Position numbers and translations under genes: made by a program | Shown here: piece by piece, positions 3,199-53,705 of the stretch | How positions within the stretch are numbered: the first letter of the stretch is position 1 | Layout: each line of letters begins with the position of its first letter | The notes under the pieces: model-generated | The model's database searches: none | Seen by the model: only the letters and a program-made list of their open reading frames with translations | Told to the model about the DNA's origin: nothing | NCBI GenBank assembly: GCA_045837725.1 | Contig: JBEWZL010000216.1 | Location: 372,001 to 436,000 of the forward strand | Reading direction: 5' to 3' | Source: Vermamoeba vermiformis | Lineage: Eukaryota | Length of the DNA: 64,000 nucleotides

Positions 3199-4093
3199 AT
3201 GACATATTATCACTTCCTTAATTGCCTCGCTGTGGCCTTTTTGCCCTATTTTGTTACATACAAAGCCTCGCATCTGTAAGTCTAAAAAAATATCCTTGAA
3301 TTATCATAAAATAATTCGACAATATTTTTAAAATTATACATCATTTACGAATAATGCGTGAAAATTGTTTCCGCGAGATACAAATTTTTCTAATTTTTTT
3401 TAACCCAGATCTGAATATGGAGCTGTTAGGGCAGTATTAATCGGTGTATTTGGCTACTTAACGACGCAAATGATTCAAGTAATGCAACATAATTGTAATA
3501 ATCAAAGTAGCTAACACTATGAACTTCAGCTGGTCATTCAGTCATCAATAATTTCCACCGAATCCGCTGTGTTCAACATCACTCAGGTACGTTTCTGATG
3601 ATCACTACTAAATATCACTCCGCTCACATGCACCGCTTAGGAGGCACTCAAATTTGTGATTGGTTTGGTGTCTGTGAGTGGCATGGCAATGTCACTGACA
3701 CGTGTCAAAGACAAAGAGACACGTGTGTTGGGTGTGGGTCTGGGCTGGGGCCTCGGTGAATGCATCGCACGACGTGTTGTTCCGCTCTATCTCATGGCCT
3801 CGGGATACGATTGGTCCGTGCAACATCTCTTGGTGGCACTCGAGTCCTTGCCCGTGTTGTTGCTGTCCCTCGCCCTCGCTACCCTTGTGACACTCTCCAA
3901 CCGCCGCGTCGTGCAAGTGACACCTGTCAGACTGGGACTCGCACTGGTGCTGCTCACTGGTCCACTGTTCAGCTACCTCGCGCACGTGACTGTGTTCGCT
4001 GAATGGCAATTGACAGCTGTCAAATTGGGCTACGCACTGCTCACCGCGCTGTACACGCGCCATTTGTGGAATTCCGCACCACGCAGTCAATAA
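3199..4093 (+). CDS. TMEM147: TMEM147 (BOS complex subunit) homolog, multi-exon
   Basis: Spliced N-terminus [30 protein letters not shown] and LGWGLGECIARRVVPLYLMASGYDWS resemble TMEM147 as I recall it. Confidence 0.85.
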
Positions 4094-4250
4094 ACAACTA
4101 ACTAACTGCAATATTTCCTAATTTGGCTATTTAAATATTTCGTACTATCAGTTTATTTCCGAGCTATAAAAGTACACTGTACAAGAATTAACATTGCAGT
4201 TTTGAAGTGAAAAAAGTATTTGACACAGACGATATTACCAAATAAGGCAA

Positions 4251-6102
4251 TTACTCATCACCCTCGTCCTCGTCTTCATCGTCTGACCAATCAGACCAGT
4301 CCCCGTCACCACCACCAGGCTCAGGCATCTCCGCCATAGCTTTGCGATGTCGTTCCATGGCCATTTTGAGCACGGAAGTCACATCGGCAGGCGGCGCAGG
4401 ACTCGATGTCGATGCCTCGCGCGCCACTGGTCGCAGCACGGCACCCTTCTTGACGTCATCCAAGAACGAGCTGCGCGACCCTGAACTGCTGACACCCCCG
4501 CTGGAGGGCTGGGGAGGGGGTGGAGGAGCAGCGGCGTTGGTGTTCTTGGCAGGGGCGGGGGGTGGTGGAGGAGGAGGGGGCGGCGCTGCACCGCCTGACA
4601 CGAGGGGCGGGGGTGTCGGGGCCACAATGCCACTCGGAATGGGTGGAGGGGGCAGCGGCAAGTCCGCGACACCGGTGGTGACAGGCAGGGGCAGGGGTGC
4701 GGGCAAGAGCGCGGTGTCAATGGGCTCGGGGGGCAGGGGCAGCGAGGTGGCCGCGTTGTTCATGATCTCAAACACCTCTTTGGCCAGCGAGCTGTTCTCT
4801 TGCAGATCGTGCTTGGTGAGACCAATCGACTTGAACAGTTCCTTCCAGTCGCCAGGGATGTTCGAGATGTCAAAGCCGCCGTCTGCTGTCCAGCCCACGT
4901 GACTCTCGTGCTTGAAGTTGGTCGGGGCCGAAGTGACACCTGTCAAACACTGGTCAGCACCGTACAACTCCTTATTTGTAAGTGCTACATACGCGTGTCA
5001 ATGTACTGAATGAAGACGCGAATACGACCAGCGACCTCTTTGTTGTCGAGCAGCAGATCGTACCACTTGTACTGGTAGCTCGGCGAGTCAAAGTCGCGCA
5101 CAGCACCGCGCAGGGGGAAGGTGACCTCGCCGTAGTACTTGCCCTTTGAGGTCGTCGGCTTCTCACCGCTGCACACGCGCACTGCTACGATCTCGCTCTC
5201 CGCATCCGTCACGTCCCTGGCTGCAGATCAGTACCCTGCTATATGTGTGTGCAGCGTATATGTCACTTACAGTTGAAAGGCCTCGTTCCAGCTGGGCTCT
5301 AATGTCTTCTTCTGCTTCGCTGTAGCAAAGGCTTTGCGCCCATCCTTGTCGCCGAGCACTTCGCGCATGTAGATGAATGCTGCGGGTGAAGGTGCGTCTT
5401 TGCTAATCTCTGCTTTGAGCTCTGCAGACACCACTGCGCAACACTAGCGTCAGAATGTGCAGATCCATGGCAAATTGAATTAAAAAATATTAAATATTCT
5501 ATTAAATACTATGGTGTGCATATAAATTAAGAATACCACACCATAATTCATATCAAGCATATATTCGAATAATTGAGCCACAAACACCAACACTTACATT
5601 GAATCTTGACCGAGCAGGGAGTGGTGCCCTTTTCAGCTTTGAGTGGCTTGCTGGGCTCAGGTGGCTTCTCGAGTGCCTTCTTCTTCTTGGTGCCATTGGT
5701 GCTCTTCTTCTTCTTCTTGGTGCCGTTAGTCGCGCTCTTCTTCTTCTTGCTCTCTTTGCCCGATCCAGACCCAGTCAAGCTGCGCGCTGATTGCGGTGCT
5801 GCCAGATTGGTGTCGCTAGTGGCACTCGCTTGCAGATTGACTTGCGAGGTCTTGGTGTTGAGTACGGGGGGTGGCGGCAGTGCGGCAGGGGTGGGCTGAG
5901 ATTCAACGACCTGCACGTAGGAGGCCGGGAACCAGCCAATGCCAGAGCCGTCAGGTTTCTGTGCCTGCCACCAGACACCGCGCCCATCAGTGCCGAGCAC
6001 TTCGAGCTCCAAGCCCACTGTCAGCGAGAGCTCCGTGGCTGAACTCGCGCTGTAGGGGGCAATGGCTTTGACGTGAAAGGGAGGCTGTAACTGTTCAGTC
6101 AT
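4251..6102 (-). CDS. WASP-family actin nucleation-promoting factor with SH3-C2-CRIB-polyPro-WH2-C-A architecture (4 exons)
   Basis: SH3 VKAIAPYSASSATELSL...GWFPASYV; C2 TLEPSWNEAF...GEVTFPL...KWYDL; CRIB SAPTNFKHESHVGW; poly-Pro; WH2 RSSFLDDVKKGAVLRPV; acidic tail DGDWSDWSDDEDEDE. Confidence 0.85.
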
Positions 6103-6446
6103 GTGCTCGTGGATGTCAGTCGTGTGAGTGTTGATTGGGCGAGGTAATTAATAATATATTTTTAATTAAATATTCTCTTTTGTTAAATCCGTTAATTGCT
6201 GCACTGCTGGTGAAAGAGCTCCAATAACAACGGGGCAGTGCCTAGTATACTCCAAATAATGCACTTGAGTGAGCAGGGACTAGTGGTGAAACAGAGAATC
6301 AATGATAATAATTAAATTGCTTTTGTGCAACTTTTTTCCAGCAGATCTTGCGCCCTGATTGAAATTTGAAGGGTGTGACGTCACTCACGCACCTCGTCCT
6401 CATTAATAACACACGTTGTATATATAGACACCACAGCTCTCCACTC

Positions 6447-17846: not shown

Positions 17847-20364
17847 TTATTTCTTCTTGAGTTGCGGCTCCAGCGCGTACAAGACATTCAGCGCCGCATC
17901 CGGTATGCGCGTACCAGGACCGAACACGAGCGTCACACCAGCATCGTAGAGTGCTTGATAGTCTGCTGGCGGAATGACCCCACCGACCACCACCAGCATG
18001 GGTCTGTCGCTCTCCTTGTTGTGTTGCTGCACCAGGGCCGTGAGTTCAGGTACCAGTGTGCGATGTGCTGCGGCCAAAGAGCTCACGCCAATCACGTGCA
18101 CGTCTGCTTCGAGGGCGAGGCGGAGCACTTCCGCAGGGGTCGAGAAGAGGGGTCCAACATCGACGTCCCAGCCCAGATCCGAGAAGCCAGTGCTGATCAC
18201 CTTGGCGCCGCGGTCGTGTCCGTCCTGACCCATCTTGCACACCAACATGCGCGGCCGACGACCGTGCAGCTGTTGGAACTGACCGACGAGCTGTTTGATG
18301 CCCTCAAGCAGCGCTTGATCGGCGTGCGAGGAGACATAGGCGCCCGAGACGAGACTGGTCTTGGGTGTGTAGCGGCCCCACACATCTTCCAGGGCCTGCG
18401 AGATCTCGCCCAGCGTGCAGCGAGCACGAGCACACACAATGCTCTGCGCGAGCAAGTTGTCGGTGGGTGTCTCGGCACTGATGTGACGTGCAATCTCGCG
18501 CAGCTTGTTGAGTTCGCGCTCGACACGTGCCTGATCACGTGACTGCTTGACCTGCGCGAGCTTGTGCAGCTGACTGTCGAGCACTTTGGTGTTGTCAATG
18601 TGCAGCACATCGACCTTCTCTTCGGTGCTGGCCTTGAACTTGTTGACACCGACGATCACCTCCACACCGCTGTCGATCATCGCTTGACGACGTGCGGCGG
18701 CCTCTTCAATGCGCAGCTTGGGCATGCCGGTCTCAATGGCCTTGGTCATGCCGCCCATCGCCTCCACCTCCTCAATGATCTGCAGTGCTTGCGTGTACAG
18801 CTGATCGGTCAGACTCTCCACGGCATACGAGCCAGCGAGGGGATCGATCAGTCCCGTGATGCCCGTCTCGTTCTGCAGAATCAGCTGCGTGTTGCGGGCA
18901 ATGCGTGCACTGAACTGCGTGGGCAGACCGAGTGCCTCGTCCATGGCATTGGTGTGCAGTGACTGCGTGCCACCCAACACCGCGCTCAGTGCCTCGAGGG
19001 CCGTGCGGATGATGTTGTTGTACGGATCTTGTTCGGTCAAACTCCACCCACTGGTCTGGCAGTGCGTGCGCAGCAATAGCGACTTGGCACTCTTGGGCTG
19101 GAACTTCTCCTTGACGAGCTTGGCCCACAATCGGCGTGCAGCGCGCAGCTTGGCGATTTCCAAGAAGAAATTCATGCCAATGCCGAAGAAGAACGAGAAG
19201 CGCGGTGCTACTTCATCGACCGTCACTCCTGCGCGCATGCCCGTGCGCACGTACTCGAGACCATCGGCGAGCGTGAAGGCGAGTTCGAGCACCGTATCTG
19301 CACCTGCTTCTTGCATGTGATAGCCCGAGATCGAGATCGAGTTGTACTTGGGCATGTGTTTGGAGGTGTAGGCCATAATGTCTTGAATGATGCGCATGGA
19401 GGGGGTAGGAGGGTAGATGTAGGTGTTGCGCACCATGAACTCCTTCAATATATCGTTCTGGATCGTACCAGCGAGTGCGCTCTGATCCACGCCTTGTTCT
19501 TCAGCAGCGACAATGTAGAATGCGAGTACTGGCAGCACGGCACCATTCATCGTCATGGAGACACTCACCTTGTCGAGTGGAATGCCGTCAAACAGCGTCT
19601 TCATGTCCTCCACGCTGTCGATCGCAACACCTGCCATGCCCACATCTCCTCGCACGCGCGGATGATCCGAGTCATAGCCGCGGTGTGTAGCGAGATCAAA
19701 GGCCACACTGAGACCTGTCTGACCTTGCTTCAAATTGGCGCGATAGAACGCATTCGACTCCTCGGCAGTGCTGAATCCGCTGTACTGACGAATAGTCCAC
19801 GGCTTGACGCTGTACATGGTGGCATATGGACCTCGCATATAAGGGAACTCACCAGGTAATGTATTGAGATCAGGCACTTGTTTAACGTCCTCAGCCGTGT
19901 AGATGGGCTTGATCTTGACACCTGCGTGTTGTTCGATGAGTGACTCAGGCTCCAAGCCTTTGACTTCTTTCTTCGCGAGTTCAATCCACTTGCTCGGCAG
20001 TGGCACCTCTGCGCGCTTGTTGTCGCTCTCATTGCTGCGCGTCACTGCTGAGCGGATGTAGCAGCGCTGTTGCACGGCCACGCGTGTCTGTGGCGCAGTC
20101 AGTTATATTGACCAGTGTTATGTGTATATAGCGAGATGTGCTGCATGTCTTAAGCAGTGATTGCAATTCAATAATAATTTACTCGTTAAATAAATTTCAA
20201 AAAATCTAGATGTGTTCCAAACCATTCAATGACACGCCACGAGTGACACAATGCATATAGTGCACTGGTACTAATTATATAAAATAGTCCGAGCAGCAGA
20301 TCTGACGTACCCCAGCTTGCAGTGCACGGTGTTGCACGATAGCAGATGCGACGTTCTTCCACAT
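17847..20364 (-). CDS. MMUT: Methylmalonyl-CoA mutase (AdoCbl-dependent), mitochondrial
   Basis: [33 protein letters not shown]12-binding GQDGHDRG; short first exon [18 protein letters not shown] splices in frame. Confidence 0.97.
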
Positions 20365-27353: not shown

Positions 27354-30041
27354 TTACACGCTGGGAGTGCCATCGTTGTTGAACGGCACGACAAAATCGA
27401 ATGAACTCGGTGGCGGGGGAATAGGCGGCTGTGTCTCGGGGATGGTGATGCCGACCAGATCCAAGAGCTTGACCTGCACTTCAATCTCCACCATCTTCTG
27501 CAGCTCTTGAAAGGACTCGCGCTCTTCAATCTGATGTCCGATCAACACGCGCAGTCCATCGGCCCAGCTCACCAGCTCTTGACGCGATGAGGCCAACAAC
27601 TCCAAGTGCTGTCACATGTCACCTGTCAGTACTCGTGTGACTAAAAATAGCAGCGCTGTACTTACCGAGCCATCTTTCAGCGCAATGAGCAGCAGTCTGT
27701 TGTGTGCTTCGGGCTCTAATTTCTTCGCGCGTGTGGCGGTGACAGCTGTTTGACCAGTCTTGACCGCGGTGATCTCCGCCTTGTTCAAGCGATGGGACAG
27801 CACGCGCGGCACGTCAGTCTGTGAAGTCGCTGCGCCGTACTGCAGTTCTGCATTGACAACACGCAAGTGCAGCCAAGCAGAGGTCGAGAGATCATTGGGC
27901 TCGCTGCTCTTGCCCTTGACGACGGCGGGATTGGCGAATGTCTGGCCCTGCGACAAGACAATGGCGCGCTGTGTGCCGAACATGTTCACTGCCTCGCTGC
28001 GCAGCTGTGTCTTCATGGCGCGCATGTGCGGTGCATCGCCCGTGTCATCGCTGAAGTTGCTCGGTGCATTGATGGCTGAACTGCTCGTGTTGAGGGAGGA
28101 GGAGCCGAGTGAGCCAGACAGCGATGTCCCGCCGAGATCAGGTGCGGTGAGTGCGCGGCCCAGCGACTCGAGATCTAGCGGCTGTGACTCGAGCGCCGCT
28201 TCAACTTGTGCGCGCACGGCAGCGAGTACTTTGCCAAAGTCCATGTAATTGGCTTTCATCTCGTCCCACGTGCGGTCCAAGAGGGTGAATGAGAGACAAT
28301 AGAGCTCTTCAAATATATTGGGCTGATCGAACAGCACTTTGAACAAGCGGCCATTCGCACCAGTCGGGTCAATGTTCTTGCCAATGTTGAGCAAGTCGTA
28401 CAACATTTGCGTGATGTTGATGCCAGCCACGGCGACAGGATACACGCGCTCGTGACCAGCAGGCAGGCGTGCGTGTTGGCCATTGAGCAGCTTCTTGAAC
28501 AGATCGGTGCGGTGTTCAGCCATGTACAGCAAGTTGTGCAGGCCCAGCAGTCCCATGCCGCGGAAATCAGTCGCTGGATCGCTGCCTTGAAAGCCCATCG
28601 CCTTCCACTGCTCGGAGATGCGGTTCTTGAGCGGGTCCGTGGGATAGATGACACTCCACAGCTTGAGCAGCATGGCCTCGTGCGTGGCGCTGTTCTTGTC
28701 GTAGCCCTCTTCGCGCATGTGTTGATAGCGCTTGAGTCGCAGTGCTTGGTGCACGAACAGCTGTCGCTTCAAGCTCTCGTCCTGCAAGTTCTTCACCATC
28801 ATGCGCAGCTTTCTGAACAGGCCCAGCTGCTCCAAGGTCTCTTGAAAGGTGCGGAACTCGCTGCGGATGTCACTCGCGTTGTTGGTGCCCTGCGAGGCAT
28901 TGAGTGGCGGCATGCTCTTGAGCAGCGACAGTGCGAGACTGTTGAGCAGTGCCAGGGCTGCTGTCTGCACCGTGACATCTGTCGCACCCAGCGCTTCCAC
29001 CACCACGGCATAGGGCTGAGTGGGCGCCAAGTTGTTCTCGCCAGGAGCAGCAGCGCCGCCCTGTCTGATGGCTGCGTCAATGATGCTCCAGCCCCACGTG
29101 GCCGAGGCTGCGAGTTGACTGAGCACTTGCAAGATACCGCGCTTGACGTTGATGTTCGAGCTGTTCAGATGCGCGGCAATCAATCGCTTGGCAATGAACT
29201 CGCGCGGCAGTAACTCAGCGCTCTGATTGGCCTGGGGGTATTTAAGGGCTTCATATAGCGCGGTCAGACCGTAGGCCAGGGTGTTGCCGATCGCGTTGCC
29301 ATCCAAGAACTTGACAATGCTCTGCAGACCTCCGAGCTGCAGGAATGCCACGGCAAATTCATCGTCCTATATATAATAATATGTTCTTAGTCACGTGATC
29401 GCGCACGAGTATTGTAGCGGCAGTGGTGATGCAAACTGTCAAATTGGGAATCGGATCCAGTCACATCGAATCAATTATGATAACAATCGCATCGTAGTGC
29501 CTTTAAGAAACATATTCTTCGTGTAAATATGATCGCTGTTGAAATTGCTTGATTTTGTGTTACACATCCGCGAGATTTACCTGCAAGTGATTTCTGAGCT
29601 CGAAAATGACGCGCTTAGCTTGGGCTGGATTGTTCAAGCCTGCTAGATCCTTTCTGCACCGAATTTATGCTCGGCTTTAATATCAACAAGCTACCAGGTG
29701 CTAGCTGAAAATTCGGATTTGAAATGTCCTAATTTCAACGTAGAATAAGATTCGCGTATCATCCATAATAAAGTTTGTGATATAAAATTAAAATATTAAA
29801 TTTACAGCACGATAACGTCACTAAATTATGATTTTTCAAACCTAAATTATCATTAAATTTGCCGTACCTGATCTGTCAGCGCTGCTTTGCTTGGTGAGGC
29901 CTCGTTGCGCAGTATATAATCAGAAGCGCTGCCATGAAAATTAAATTTGCTGAATAGGGACTCAATCGTCTCTTGTAACGGTTCTTTGTTCCACTCAAAG
30001 TCGATGGTGGTGGTCAAGTACTGGACTTTAATCTTTACCAT
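27354..30041 (-). CDS. ELMO/CED-12 family protein (N-terminal Ubl-like, ARM, ELMO domain, PH, proline-rich tail)
   Basis: QWKAMGFQGSDPATDFRGMGLLGL, YPVAVAGINIT, WDEMKANYMDF; WADGLRVL; IPETQPPIPPPPSSFDF. Confidence 0.92.
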
Positions 30042-51969: not shown

Positions 51970-53705
51970 TTACAAGAAGAGGACAACAGCAAAGAGCAAT
52001 AACGACACTACTGGCACCGCAGAGCTGACACCAGAAGTAGCGCTGTTGGGTGATCTCGACGAGGGAGATTGACTGGTTGAAGGCGCAGTGACGAGCTCAT
52101 CACCGAACACCTTGCCGCTGTTGTAGAGGTAGTTTGACACTTGAATGGTCGCATTGACAGCAAAGTCACTCTGCACATAGAGCACTTCACGGCCCTCTCT
52201 TAGCACTCTGAATTCAGGGGCAGGACCGAACTCAAGAGGCACGTAAAAGGACTGCATTCCTGCAGCGACATCGCGCGTGTGATTGACACCGTTCATTGTC
52301 ACGATGAGTGTGGCCGGTGCATCGAGGAACGCGAGCATTTCAACAAAGTCCACGCCAGGGGCACCATTCACAGCTGTAAATGTGACATTCTGCGGTGTTG
52401 GCTGCACGACCTCCGAGTCAGTGCGCTGTGAGCGGTGGAAGTAATAGACTGCCTCGCGCTTCAGTGCTGGTGGCGCACCTGTTTTGAACCAGTGCGTGTA
52501 ATAGGCAGTCAAGTCGTAGAACGAGTCCCTGGTGCCGGTGGAAGGTGAAATAATGCTGTGCTCGGAGTAGTCGTTCCACGTGATCAAATGCACGTAGTCA
52601 GCACTGCCGTTGATCGCACTCTCCCAGCCATTGCGGAATGTCACCGAGCAGTTTGCCTCAGTAAAAATACCGCTCTTTGGACGAAAATCTTGCGGGGCTA
52701 CTGGTGCGAGCCTAATCGATCGGAGGTGAGCACAACTAGAGTCCCATTGAATTTGTTCACATCACTCACCACTTCAGACCGCTGTTGTGCACTGTGGGGC
52801 CGTCATTTCTCACGTCGTAACTTCCCTGTTTAGTTCTAGCGCCCCACGTGCTGAACCCTGAGTGACACGTGTCAGCCATTAGTCGACTTTAAGACTCAAT
52901 ATTACTTGCCCATGATAGAATCCCCCCAGTTGTCAAATGAGGCAGGCATGGAGAGTGGCACGGGAATGACTGAGATGTTGATACCTTCGCGCGCCAGTTC
53001 GCTCTTGGCTTCACTCCACCACGTCACGTTGTTGGGTATGAAAGGTGTCAACAGAATCCCGTTGTTCTCTGGCGTGCGGTACACAATGGGCGAGTCTTTC
53101 CACTGTCTCACGAGGTCTTTGATCTGGTCGGGATTGTCTTGCATGTCCGTGCCTGCAAAGTCGGGCATGAACACCACGCGGAATGTTGGATCGACTTGTT
53201 CAATCACGGATATTGAACGACTGCAAGATTAGTAAGAAAATATATTAATATATTAATCATTAATAAGGGCTTACTTAATACCGGGGTCTGTAGCGGTAAA
53301 GATGTCGATAATGAATCCGTCAATGCCTAGACTGCGCGCTCGTCGCACTTCATTGGCAAAGTCGTAGTCCTTGAAATTAGGGGCATTGATTGGTGGTCTC
53401 GGCCACGGTCTAGAGCGCAAAAATCCGCCGTACTTGTTCCACTTGGCTTCTACACCACCGGCATACGGATTCAGATAGCCAGTCGTGTAGTAATCGTTAT
53501 CTGGGTCCTTGTTGTCGATGGATAATGGAAAGTTGAACATATATAATGCAAAAACTTTTTTAGGTGAGGCACGCAGCTGATCTACAGGGGCTGTGTCGAA
53601 AAAGAATGTGGGTTGAAAGGCATCTGGCGATTCAAGAGCGGCCCCGACGCGCATGACATGAATCAATGCAAGTACCGCGAGCACGAGCAATATTCTGTAC
53701 CTCAT
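51970..53705 (-). CDS. GH71 alpha-1,3-glucanase-like protein, secreted, putative GPI anchor
   Basis: Signal peptide; KKVFALY, EVRRARSLGIDGF, LITWNDYSE, YYFHR; Ser/Thr-rich linker then hydrophobic C-terminus. Confidence 0.82.

Follow-up and report, generated by a model that had tools for sequence, protein, structure and literature searches.

A WH1-less WASP-family protein with SH3 and C2 domains ahead of its CRIB motif, predicted from Vermamoeba vermiformis and related lobose amoebae

We analysed a 64,000-nucleotide (nt) stretch of the Vermamoeba vermiformis genome (assembly GCA_045837725.1, contig JBEWZL010000216.1, positions 372,001 to 436,000; hereafter the window), which carries a gene for a WASP-like protein on its minus strand. 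In this protein, SH3 and C2 domains precede a CRIB motif with its GTPase-binding helices (GBD), a proline-rich region (PRR) and a terminal segment of WH2, connector and acidic elements (VCA). Judged from its predicted domains, it belongs to the WASP family but lacks WH1, and it falls in a subfamily of lobose amoebae with the layout SH3-C2-CRIB-PRR-VCA; the layout is apparently undescribed and stays within the WASP-family kind. Going by homology, we assign a probability of about 0.72 to the reading that the protein would act as a Rac-regulated activator of Arp2/3, held at membranes by a Ca2+-independent C2 domain. An earlier sequence-only reading of the window had given the order as SH3, Lys-rich tract, C2, CRIB/GBD, poly-Pro, WH2, C and acidic Trp tail, and this order is borne out by Pfam, by a fold model and by alignment with WASPs that carry a WH1 domain (WH1-WASPs).

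Locating introns from reading frames and GT..AG signals yielded a coding sequence (CDS) of four exons on the minus strand (6102..4251), which coincides exactly with the stretch singled out in the sequence-only reading and encodes a product of 526 amino acids (aa). The three introns, of 164, 54 and 53 nt, are all of the GT..AG type. GC content is 0.603 in the CDS versus 0.373 in the introns, and the window is eukaryotic in character, with GC-rich exons and AT-rich short introns and spacers. An overlapping plus-strand open reading frame (ORF; 4246..4902, 218 aa, Gly-rich) was rejected, as it mirrors the poly-Pro codons and the splice signals lie on the minus strand.

The SH3-C2 and CRIB-VCA parts belong to one spliced mRNA, as the sequence-only reading had supposed. 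Of 24 public sequencing runs listed, 20, from 10 studies, contain the stretch, and we compared the contigs of 4 of them, from 4 studies (X1, X2, X3 and X5). Contigs in all four runs skip exactly the three intervals given as introns in Table 1, with CT..AC ends on the plus strand; being intronless against an intron-bearing genome, they are best explained as cDNA. One X1 contig (record 2, 1449 nt) corresponds to 6292..4573 and covers the 5' untranslated region (UTR), SH3, C2, CRIB and part of the poly-Pro stretch, and one X5 contig (record 8, 1488 nt) corresponds to 5889..4131 and covers the linker, Lys tract, C2, CRIB, poly-Pro, VCA and 3' UTR. Two database proteins from one 90%-identity cluster of a near relative match the gene model end to end, namely P0157 (527 aa; contigs of up to 6990 nt; 88.1% identity, 457/519) and P0161 (524 aa; contig of 1912 nt; 89.1% identity, 460/516), and each of them, on a single contig, is continuous across all three junctions. 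The same cluster also holds exon-sized fragments on contigs of 430–444 kb that end at the same exon borders, and the intron positions are therefore conserved in that relative's genome. Because contigs skip the introns in all four runs, and because P0157 and P0161 span every junction, these data describe one transcript rather than two genes.

The start codon is likewise secure. The stop-to-stop frame of exon 1 opens at 6147, placing an in-frame stop just upstream of the ATG; the minus strand holds no ATG within 6103..6292, the 190-nt 5' UTR, over which the X1 contig is colinear with the window; and the orthologues P0157 and P0161 share the same start Met.

Table 1. Features of the WASP-like gene, by position in the window
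Feature	Positions	Strand	Residues (aa)	Remarks
5' UTR, at least	6103..6292	-		X1 record 2 colinear with the window up to 6292
Exon 1	5598..6102	-	1-168 plus one base	SH3, linker, Lys tract, first C2 strand; start codon 6102..6100
SH3 domain	5905..6078	-	9-66	Pfam SH3_1 3.3e-8 (aa 12-60, above cut-off), SH3_2 7.5e-6; model pLDDT about 90
Lys-rich tract	5665..5760	-	115-146	On a 30-nt tandem repeat
C2 domain	4938..5616	-	163-298	Introns 1 and 2 lie inside it; intron 3 falls within its last codon
Intron 1	5434..5597	-		164 nt, GT..AG, AT-rich; one skipping contig in each of X1, X2, X3 and X5
Exon 2	5271..5433	-		First half of C2; Pfam C2 E 1.5e-3 on the exon alone
Intron 2	5217..5270	-		54 nt, GT..AG; skipped in 4/4 runs
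Exon 3	4993..5216	-		Second half of C2; aligns with C2 of P0001 and P0005
Intron 3	4940..4992	-		53 nt, GT..AG; between last C2 strand and CRIB; skipped in 4/4 runs
Exon 4	4251..4939	-		CRIB/GBD, poly-Pro, WH2, C, A; stop 4253..4251
CRIB motif and GBD helices	4755..4934	-	300-359	Pfam PBD 3.5e-14
Proline-rich region	4491..4742	-	364-447	Includes a run of nine Pro; low pLDDT
WH2 (V) motif	4425..4472	-	454-469	Aligned with Pfam-positive WH2 of relatives and WH1-WASPs
C (connector) helix	4332..4385	-	483-500	Arg invariant versus WH1-WASPs; model helix 482-498
Acidic tail, two Trp	4254..4307	-	509-526	Aligned with the WASP acidic-Trp tail
3' UTR, at least	4131..4250	-		X5 record 8 extends to 4131

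The C-terminal half of the protein is of WASP type. Against solved structures, the GBD matched that of WASP, both Cdc42-bound (1cee_B, 4.1e-8) and autoinhibited (1ej5_A, 1.3e-6), as well as 2k42_A and N-WASP, while the match to PAK was weaker (1.1e-4); it is 48% identical to the GBD of a WH1-WASP. For structural predictions we used P0157, modelled in AlphaFold2 with a 28-row family alignment, and here the GBD forms a hairpin followed by three helices at 314–359, which are conserved after the CRIB hairpin across the family. A predicted interaction between the GBD (298–366) and VCA (445–527) of P0157, run without the family alignment, scored 0.16 versus a mark of 0.34, a result that speaks neither for nor against autoinhibition. 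Further downstream, the VCA elements were aligned in 10 rows, six of them WH1-WASPs. The WH2 motif has the invariant Leu and the same spacing as in WH1-WASPs, a helix followed by four residues and L(K/R)xV, with a model helix at 454–459; additional support comes from the relative P0007, in which Pfam detects WH2 at 1.8e-6, and from a whole-sequence match to chain D of an N-WASP structure (2vcp_D, E 8e-4). The acidic tail consists of a DWSDW motif and then an acidic run. Two Trp residues in this tail also occur in P0007, P0001, P0171, P0017 and P0032, a single Trp being usual in WASP. Outside SH3, C2, GBD and the short WH2 and C helices, the P0157 model is disordered.

At the other end of the protein, no WH1 domain was matched by Pfam at E≤1 in the four exon translations or at E≤0.01 in P0157; the same scan readily detected WH1 in other homologues. 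Together with the WASP-type GBD and VCA, this upholds the claim of a WASP-like protein in which SH3 and C2 replace WH1, and no WIP-type partner is therefore expected. The SH3 domain matches 43 SH3 sequences in the PDB at E≤1e-3, including those of p47phox, Abl, intersectin and myosin-IB, and presumably retains the ligand-binding aromatics (Tyr, Trp-Trp, Pro-x-x-Tyr) of the SH3 consensus.

The C2 domain, split between exons, was faint in Pfam on exon 2 alone (below cut-off) and gave nothing on exon 3; in intact P0157 it scored 1.6e-8. The model of P0157 shows an eight-stranded sandwich at approximately 150–297, with a predicted local distance difference test score (pLDDT) of 81–94 over most of it. 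Among the matches listed by Foldseek for this model, almost all were C2 domains or C2-containing proteins, the best being 9zk1_D (E 2.3e-10, template modelling (TM) score 0.79), and they included Munc13 C2B, intersectin-2, dysferlin, Nedd4, PLC-delta, cPLA2 and PKC eta/epsilon. A search of the ESM Atlas with P0157 gave no usable match. The last C2 strand abuts the CRIB motif, with a junction of about three residues that is constant across the family alignment, and the C2 domain therefore stands in the place of the basic region of WASP and N-WASP. The most conserved C2 stretch in that alignment is a loop of the type FPLRGAVRDFD-x-P (P0157, approximately 256–270), for which we know of no counterpart in other C2 domains.

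We next considered Ca2+ binding. The columns of the five canonical Asp ligands in loops 1 and 3, anchored on P0033, contain no or one Asp in 27 of the 28 aligned rows, and loop 3 is Lys-rich. P0157 and P0161 have V, S, S, D and K at the five positions, and the window protein has Glu at the fourth. A Ca2+-dependent C2 in the window's lineage was rejected, since the canonical ligand columns are not Asp, and any membrane binding by a C2 domain without these residues would therefore be Ca2+-independent. Over 19 members, the median net charge of the C2 domain is +4. All five Asp occur in a single row, P0033 (ENA, 477 aa, contig of 9726 nt), a distant member with 25% identity and the same SH3-C2-CRIB-PRR-VCA order, whose C2 has a net charge of −3. 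On the evidence of these residues, P0033 may represent a version of this design that is gated by Ca2+.

One element of the sequence-only reading did not survive, namely the basic tract as part of the design. The tract overlies a 30-nt tandem repeat (5677–5749, 2.4 copies, 88% matches), and aa 101–160 contain 18 Lys. Its length differs in P0157 and P0161, and run X3 carries an in-frame 3-nt insertion after 5716 within the repeat. Among the 28 rows of the family alignment, the tract is found in those of the window protein, P0157 and P0161; being missing from the other members, it is therefore not part of the conserved design. By these comparisons it is a young, fast-changing, length-polymorphic and low-complexity insert, specific to one lineage. 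It is also not the basic region that in WASP and N-WASP lies directly N-terminal to CRIB, as it sits about 155 residues upstream and in this lineage alone.

The window protein belongs to a family. In a word-based homology search, exon 4 matched three WH1-WASPs and a single protein combining SH3, PBD and C2 (P0001), and a second search returned P0005. Using P0005 as the phmmer query against 1.84 billion representatives, we obtained 853 matches at E≤1e-3, 175 at 1e-10 and 27 at 1e-30. Pfam scanning of 41 matches identified SH3+C2+PBD in 8, C2+PBD with or without WH2 in 14 (mostly N-terminal fragments), PBD alone with or without WH2 in 11, WH1+PBD in 3, C2 alone in 2, and SH3+PBD, SH3+C2 and SH3 alone in 1 each. 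Of 12 more proteins, 5 had SH3+C2+PBD, 3 had SH3+PBD and a C2 that has diverged beyond recognition by Pfam, and 4 had C2+PBD+WH2 with partial N-termini; 54 more matches included 12 canonical WH1-PBD proteins, with multi-SH3 adaptors and C2 proteins also present. With P0001 and P0005, at least 15 database proteins thus combine SH3, C2 and PBD. The sequence-only reading had placed the architecture outside the recognised families; this holds in so far as we found no description of it in the open-access literature, and these counts show that it is not a one-off.

At least 16 full-length relatives, on transcript-sized contigs or in transcriptomes, have the same domain order, and across the family, at an overall identity of 25–45%, members retain both the acidic Trp tail and the C helix, in which the Arg is invariant. 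The four named members, whose sequences come from EukProt transcriptomes, are Nolandella sp., Pyxidicula operculata, Difflugia compressa and Rhizamoeba saxonica; all are Tubulinea of the class Elardia. Taken by itself, this gene would place the window's organism probably within Tubulinea or near to them. The other clusters looked up derive from JGI/IMG, Logan, ENA or MetaClust, and no NCBI or UniRef source was found among the 22 clusters looked up or the architecture-bearing matches of the initial searches. Four candidate SH3-less paralogues (P0018, P0168, P0170 and P0179) were not accepted, as their N-termini begin with V and look partial. Family-related C2 domains also occur at the C terminus of a Pyxidicula protein (P0049, 973 aa) and after two SH3 domains in P0090 (757 aa), and the pairing of SH3 with C2 may, from these arrangements, be a recurring module in these amoebae.

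A phylogenetic tree was constructed from the GBD alone (95 rows, 65 columns, with 24 N-truncated rows excluded and architecture labels taken from our own hidden Markov models). The tree is poorly resolved, with 47 of 88 forks open, and its alignment is too short to position the family. C2-linked GBDs cluster in it (5 label changes versus a mean of 32.1 in 500 shuffles, none of which gave so few). One branch (SH-aLRT 91) holds all 39 WH1 rows and 10 distant C2-linked rows, and the remaining 37 of 47 C2-linked rows fall outside it.

On the basis of homology with WASP, we propose the following mechanism. In the resting state, the C helix would be held by the GBD helices, in the manner of autoinhibited WASP. 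A membrane-bound, GTP-loaded Rac-type GTPase would bind CRIB and release the VCA, whereupon WH2 would supply an actin monomer, the poly-Pro region would feed in profilin-actin, and the C helix and acidic Trp tail would engage and activate Arp2/3. The sequence-only reading had suggested either Rac or Cdc42 as the GTPase; we keep Rac as the presumed partner and drop Cdc42 because Amoebozoa are not known to have it. The C2 domain, aided by the Lys tract in the window's lineage, would hold CRIB at an acidic membrane without Ca2+, and activation would therefore need lipid and Rac-GTP together. The SH3 domain could recruit or cluster the protein through PxxP ligands, either in its own poly-Pro region or in other proteins.

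Several points weigh against this reading. The functional steps (Arp2/3 activation, binding of the GTPase and of lipid, and autoinhibition) are deduced from homology. Confidence in the GBD model is moderate (pLDDT approximately 68–75), and WH2 falls below the Pfam threshold in this lineage, being unmatched at E≤1 in the window protein and at 0.01 in P0157, and in the window protein it ends LRPV rather than LKKV. No Asp-less member has a C2 domain of lower net charge than the window's lineage (+1), which weakens a purely electrostatic membrane role, and C2 could be a protein-binding module instead of a membrane module. The conserved FPLRGAVRDFD-type loop, to which we assign no meaning, could from its conservation be a candidate binding surface and counts on the same side. 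The Lys tract might just as well serve for nuclear localisation; that the lineage with a low-charge C2 gained this tract may reflect compensation, which we regard as speculation. Finally, in the window's own strain the case for a single transcript comes from two contigs that overlap by about 1.3 kb of the locus, neither of which alone covers SH3 to VCA, and the RNA type of the runs is a software guess, none being recorded as RNA. The gaps between contigs in this strain coincide with the poly-Pro and Lys-codon repeats.

These points feed several alternative explanations. The protein could be a nucleation-promoting factor (NPF) in which CRIB/GBD serves to localise the protein by binding Rac, or to sequester Rac, with activity set by clustering of C2 and SH3 at membranes and not by release of the C helix. 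Such a role would fit a short GBD, as the Pfam PBD match stops at aa 355 and poly-Pro begins at 364, so that a WASP-like fourth helix may be missing, and it would fit the moderate model confidence for both the GBD and the C helix. In Dictyostelium, moreover, the CRIB of WASP is reportedly dispensable for much of WASP localisation and acts on the levels of active Rac. We nevertheless consider this unlikely, given that the three GBD helices are conserved in the family and align with the autoinhibited structure 1ej5, and that the C helix is conserved with its invariant Arg. A loss of function further along the chain, leaving a Rac effector or actin-monomer-binding scaffold with a degenerate VCA and no Arp2/3 activation, seems very unlikely. 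It would account for the sub-threshold WH2 of the window's lineage and accords with Arp2/3 activation being a prediction, but the C helix and acidic Trp tail have been kept through the divergence of the family, which argues for selection on Arp2/3 binding.

Two further alternatives concern what the gene is rather than how its product works. An erroneous gene model, either joining separate SH3-C2 and CRIB-VCA genes or missing an upstream WH1 exon, is scarcely credible: although the boundary between C2 and CRIB falls at intron 3 and no own-strain contig spans the full CDS, that intron is spliced in frame by contigs in all four runs and the full-length relatives repeat the same order, while the in-frame stop, the ATG-free and colinear 5' UTR and the shared Met leave little room for a missed WH1 exon. 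The protein might also be one of the WH1-less WASPs (WAWH) already described from Amoebozoa, and thus nothing new, since a GBD, PRR and VCA without WH1 fit the definition of that group. This, too, we hold to be quite improbable, because the three WAWH types, judged from their descriptions (PMC3298513), carry other features and neither SH3 nor C2, because a later inventory of CRIB proteins (PMC8847673) contains no mention of a C2 domain, and because Tubulinea are unsampled in both papers as far as the parts available go. The Rac-regulated, C2-anchored activator thus remains the reading that we prefer.

Other genes lie nearby. A gene for a DUF2053-type membrane protein, whose last exon lies at 3641–4093 (plus strand, Pfam 4.5e-13), converges on the WASP-like gene; the reading frame of this exon stops at 4093 and a contig of the WASP-like transcript extends to 4131, so that the 3' ends lie within about 40 nt. 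About 21 kb from the WASP-like gene, a long ORF carries ELMO/CED-12 and ELMO-ARM domains (27612–29366, minus strand, 3.5e-53). Proteins of this kind work together with Rac exchange factors of the DOCK type, and the presence of a second Rac-pathway gene in the window is probably a coincidence. An uninterrupted 751-aa ORF (17847–20102, minus strand, 6.1e-235) encodes a methylmalonyl-CoA mutase with a B12-binding domain, from which the organism seems to use cobalamin. Finally, an ORF at 51970–52761 (minus strand, 8e-17) matches glycosyl hydrolases of family 71, of the alpha-1,3-glucanase type.

How the window protein compares with known systems bears on its novelty. Outside its own family, WH1-WASPs are among its nearest matches, and it shares with WASP and N-WASP (WH1-B-GBD-PRR-VCA) the WASP-type CRIB/GBD, the poly-Pro region and the WH2-C-acidic Trp tail, the last of which aligns column for column with that of WH1-WASPs. 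In contrast to these, the window protein lacks WH1/EVH1, has an N-terminal SH3 instead, carries C2 at the place of the basic region and has two Trp in its tail. Its C2 domain shares the beta-sandwich of the C2 domains of novel PKC epsilon/eta, Nedd4-type proteins and intersectin (Foldseek 3jzy, 2fk9, 1gmi, 2nsq and 3b7y), which are Ca2+-independent and likewise lack the Asp pentad. It differs from them in identity (13–24%), and those proteins have neither the family-specific loop nor the fusion to CRIB.

Among amoebozoan proteins, the closest in layout are the WAWH proteins, which are WASPs without WH1 (GBD-PRR-VCA; Kollmar et al. 2012, PMC3298513). In type I, a basic region is all that precedes the GBD; type II combines N-terminal CxxC pairs with a coiled coil after the GBD, and type III carries a charged region of about 800 residues; their sources are Dictyostelids, Acanthamoeba, Entamoeba, Thecamonas and Anolis, with no Tubulinea in the parts of the text available. 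In that paper, 'C2 domain' does not occur and 'SH3' occurs once, in another context. Having GBD-PRR-VCA without WH1, the window protein would fall under WAWH in that nomenclature, but the descriptions of types I–III set it apart, as none has SH3 or C2 and the window protein shows the features of none of them, its GBD being preceded by SH3 and C2 and followed at once by poly-Pro. The 2022 inventory of CRIB proteins from Dictyostelium, Acanthamoeba and Entamoeba (PMC8847673) contains no occurrence of 'C2 domain' and, in the parts available, no Tubulinea; neither C2 nor SH3 appears in the figure keys that it gives for Dictyostelium and Acanthamoeba. A search of open-access papers and bioRxiv, to which InterPro, CyMoBase and subscription journals are external, found no description of an SH3-C2-CRIB-VCA layout and, in the literature on WASP/SCAR of Tubulinea, nothing on NPF architecture.

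A bolder claim can be made only tentatively, and we regard it as possible though doubtful. On this view, the gene would provide the first example in a genome of a separate class that has so far gone undescribed ('C2-WASP'), the characteristic Rac-effector NPF of tubulinean amoebae, in which a Ca2+-independent, cationic C2 set on CRIB takes the places of WH1 and of the basic region alike. Such a design would tie Arp2/3 activation to acidic membrane, Rac-GTP and SH3 clustering occurring together, with no WIP-type partner, and P0033 would represent a Ca2+-gated ancestor or sister. Domain-shuffled signalling proteins are common in protists, and no new biochemical principle is demonstrated here. 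Lobose amoebae were the source of the classical models of amoeboid movement, and their nucleation-promoting factors are essentially unstudied. The fusion of C2 to CRIB is a compact natural experiment on how lipid and GTPase signals are integrated in switching Arp2/3, in which the Asp-bearing P0033 offers a built-in contrast of Ca2+-dependent with Ca2+-independent versions.

A conceptual parallel to such a fusion is WAML of Entamoeba (IMD-WAID-PRR-VCA; PMC3298513), where, as described in the available parts of that text, a lipid-binding module is likewise joined in cis to a WASP-type tail in place of WH1. In WAML, however, the membrane module is an IMD/I-BAR domain and not C2, and the protein has WAID without CRIB and no SH3. 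Classification within the WASP family goes by the targeting module at the N terminus, namely WH1, WHD, WAHD, the WHAMM/JMY N terminus or the IMD of WAML, and SH3-C2 would add another to this series.

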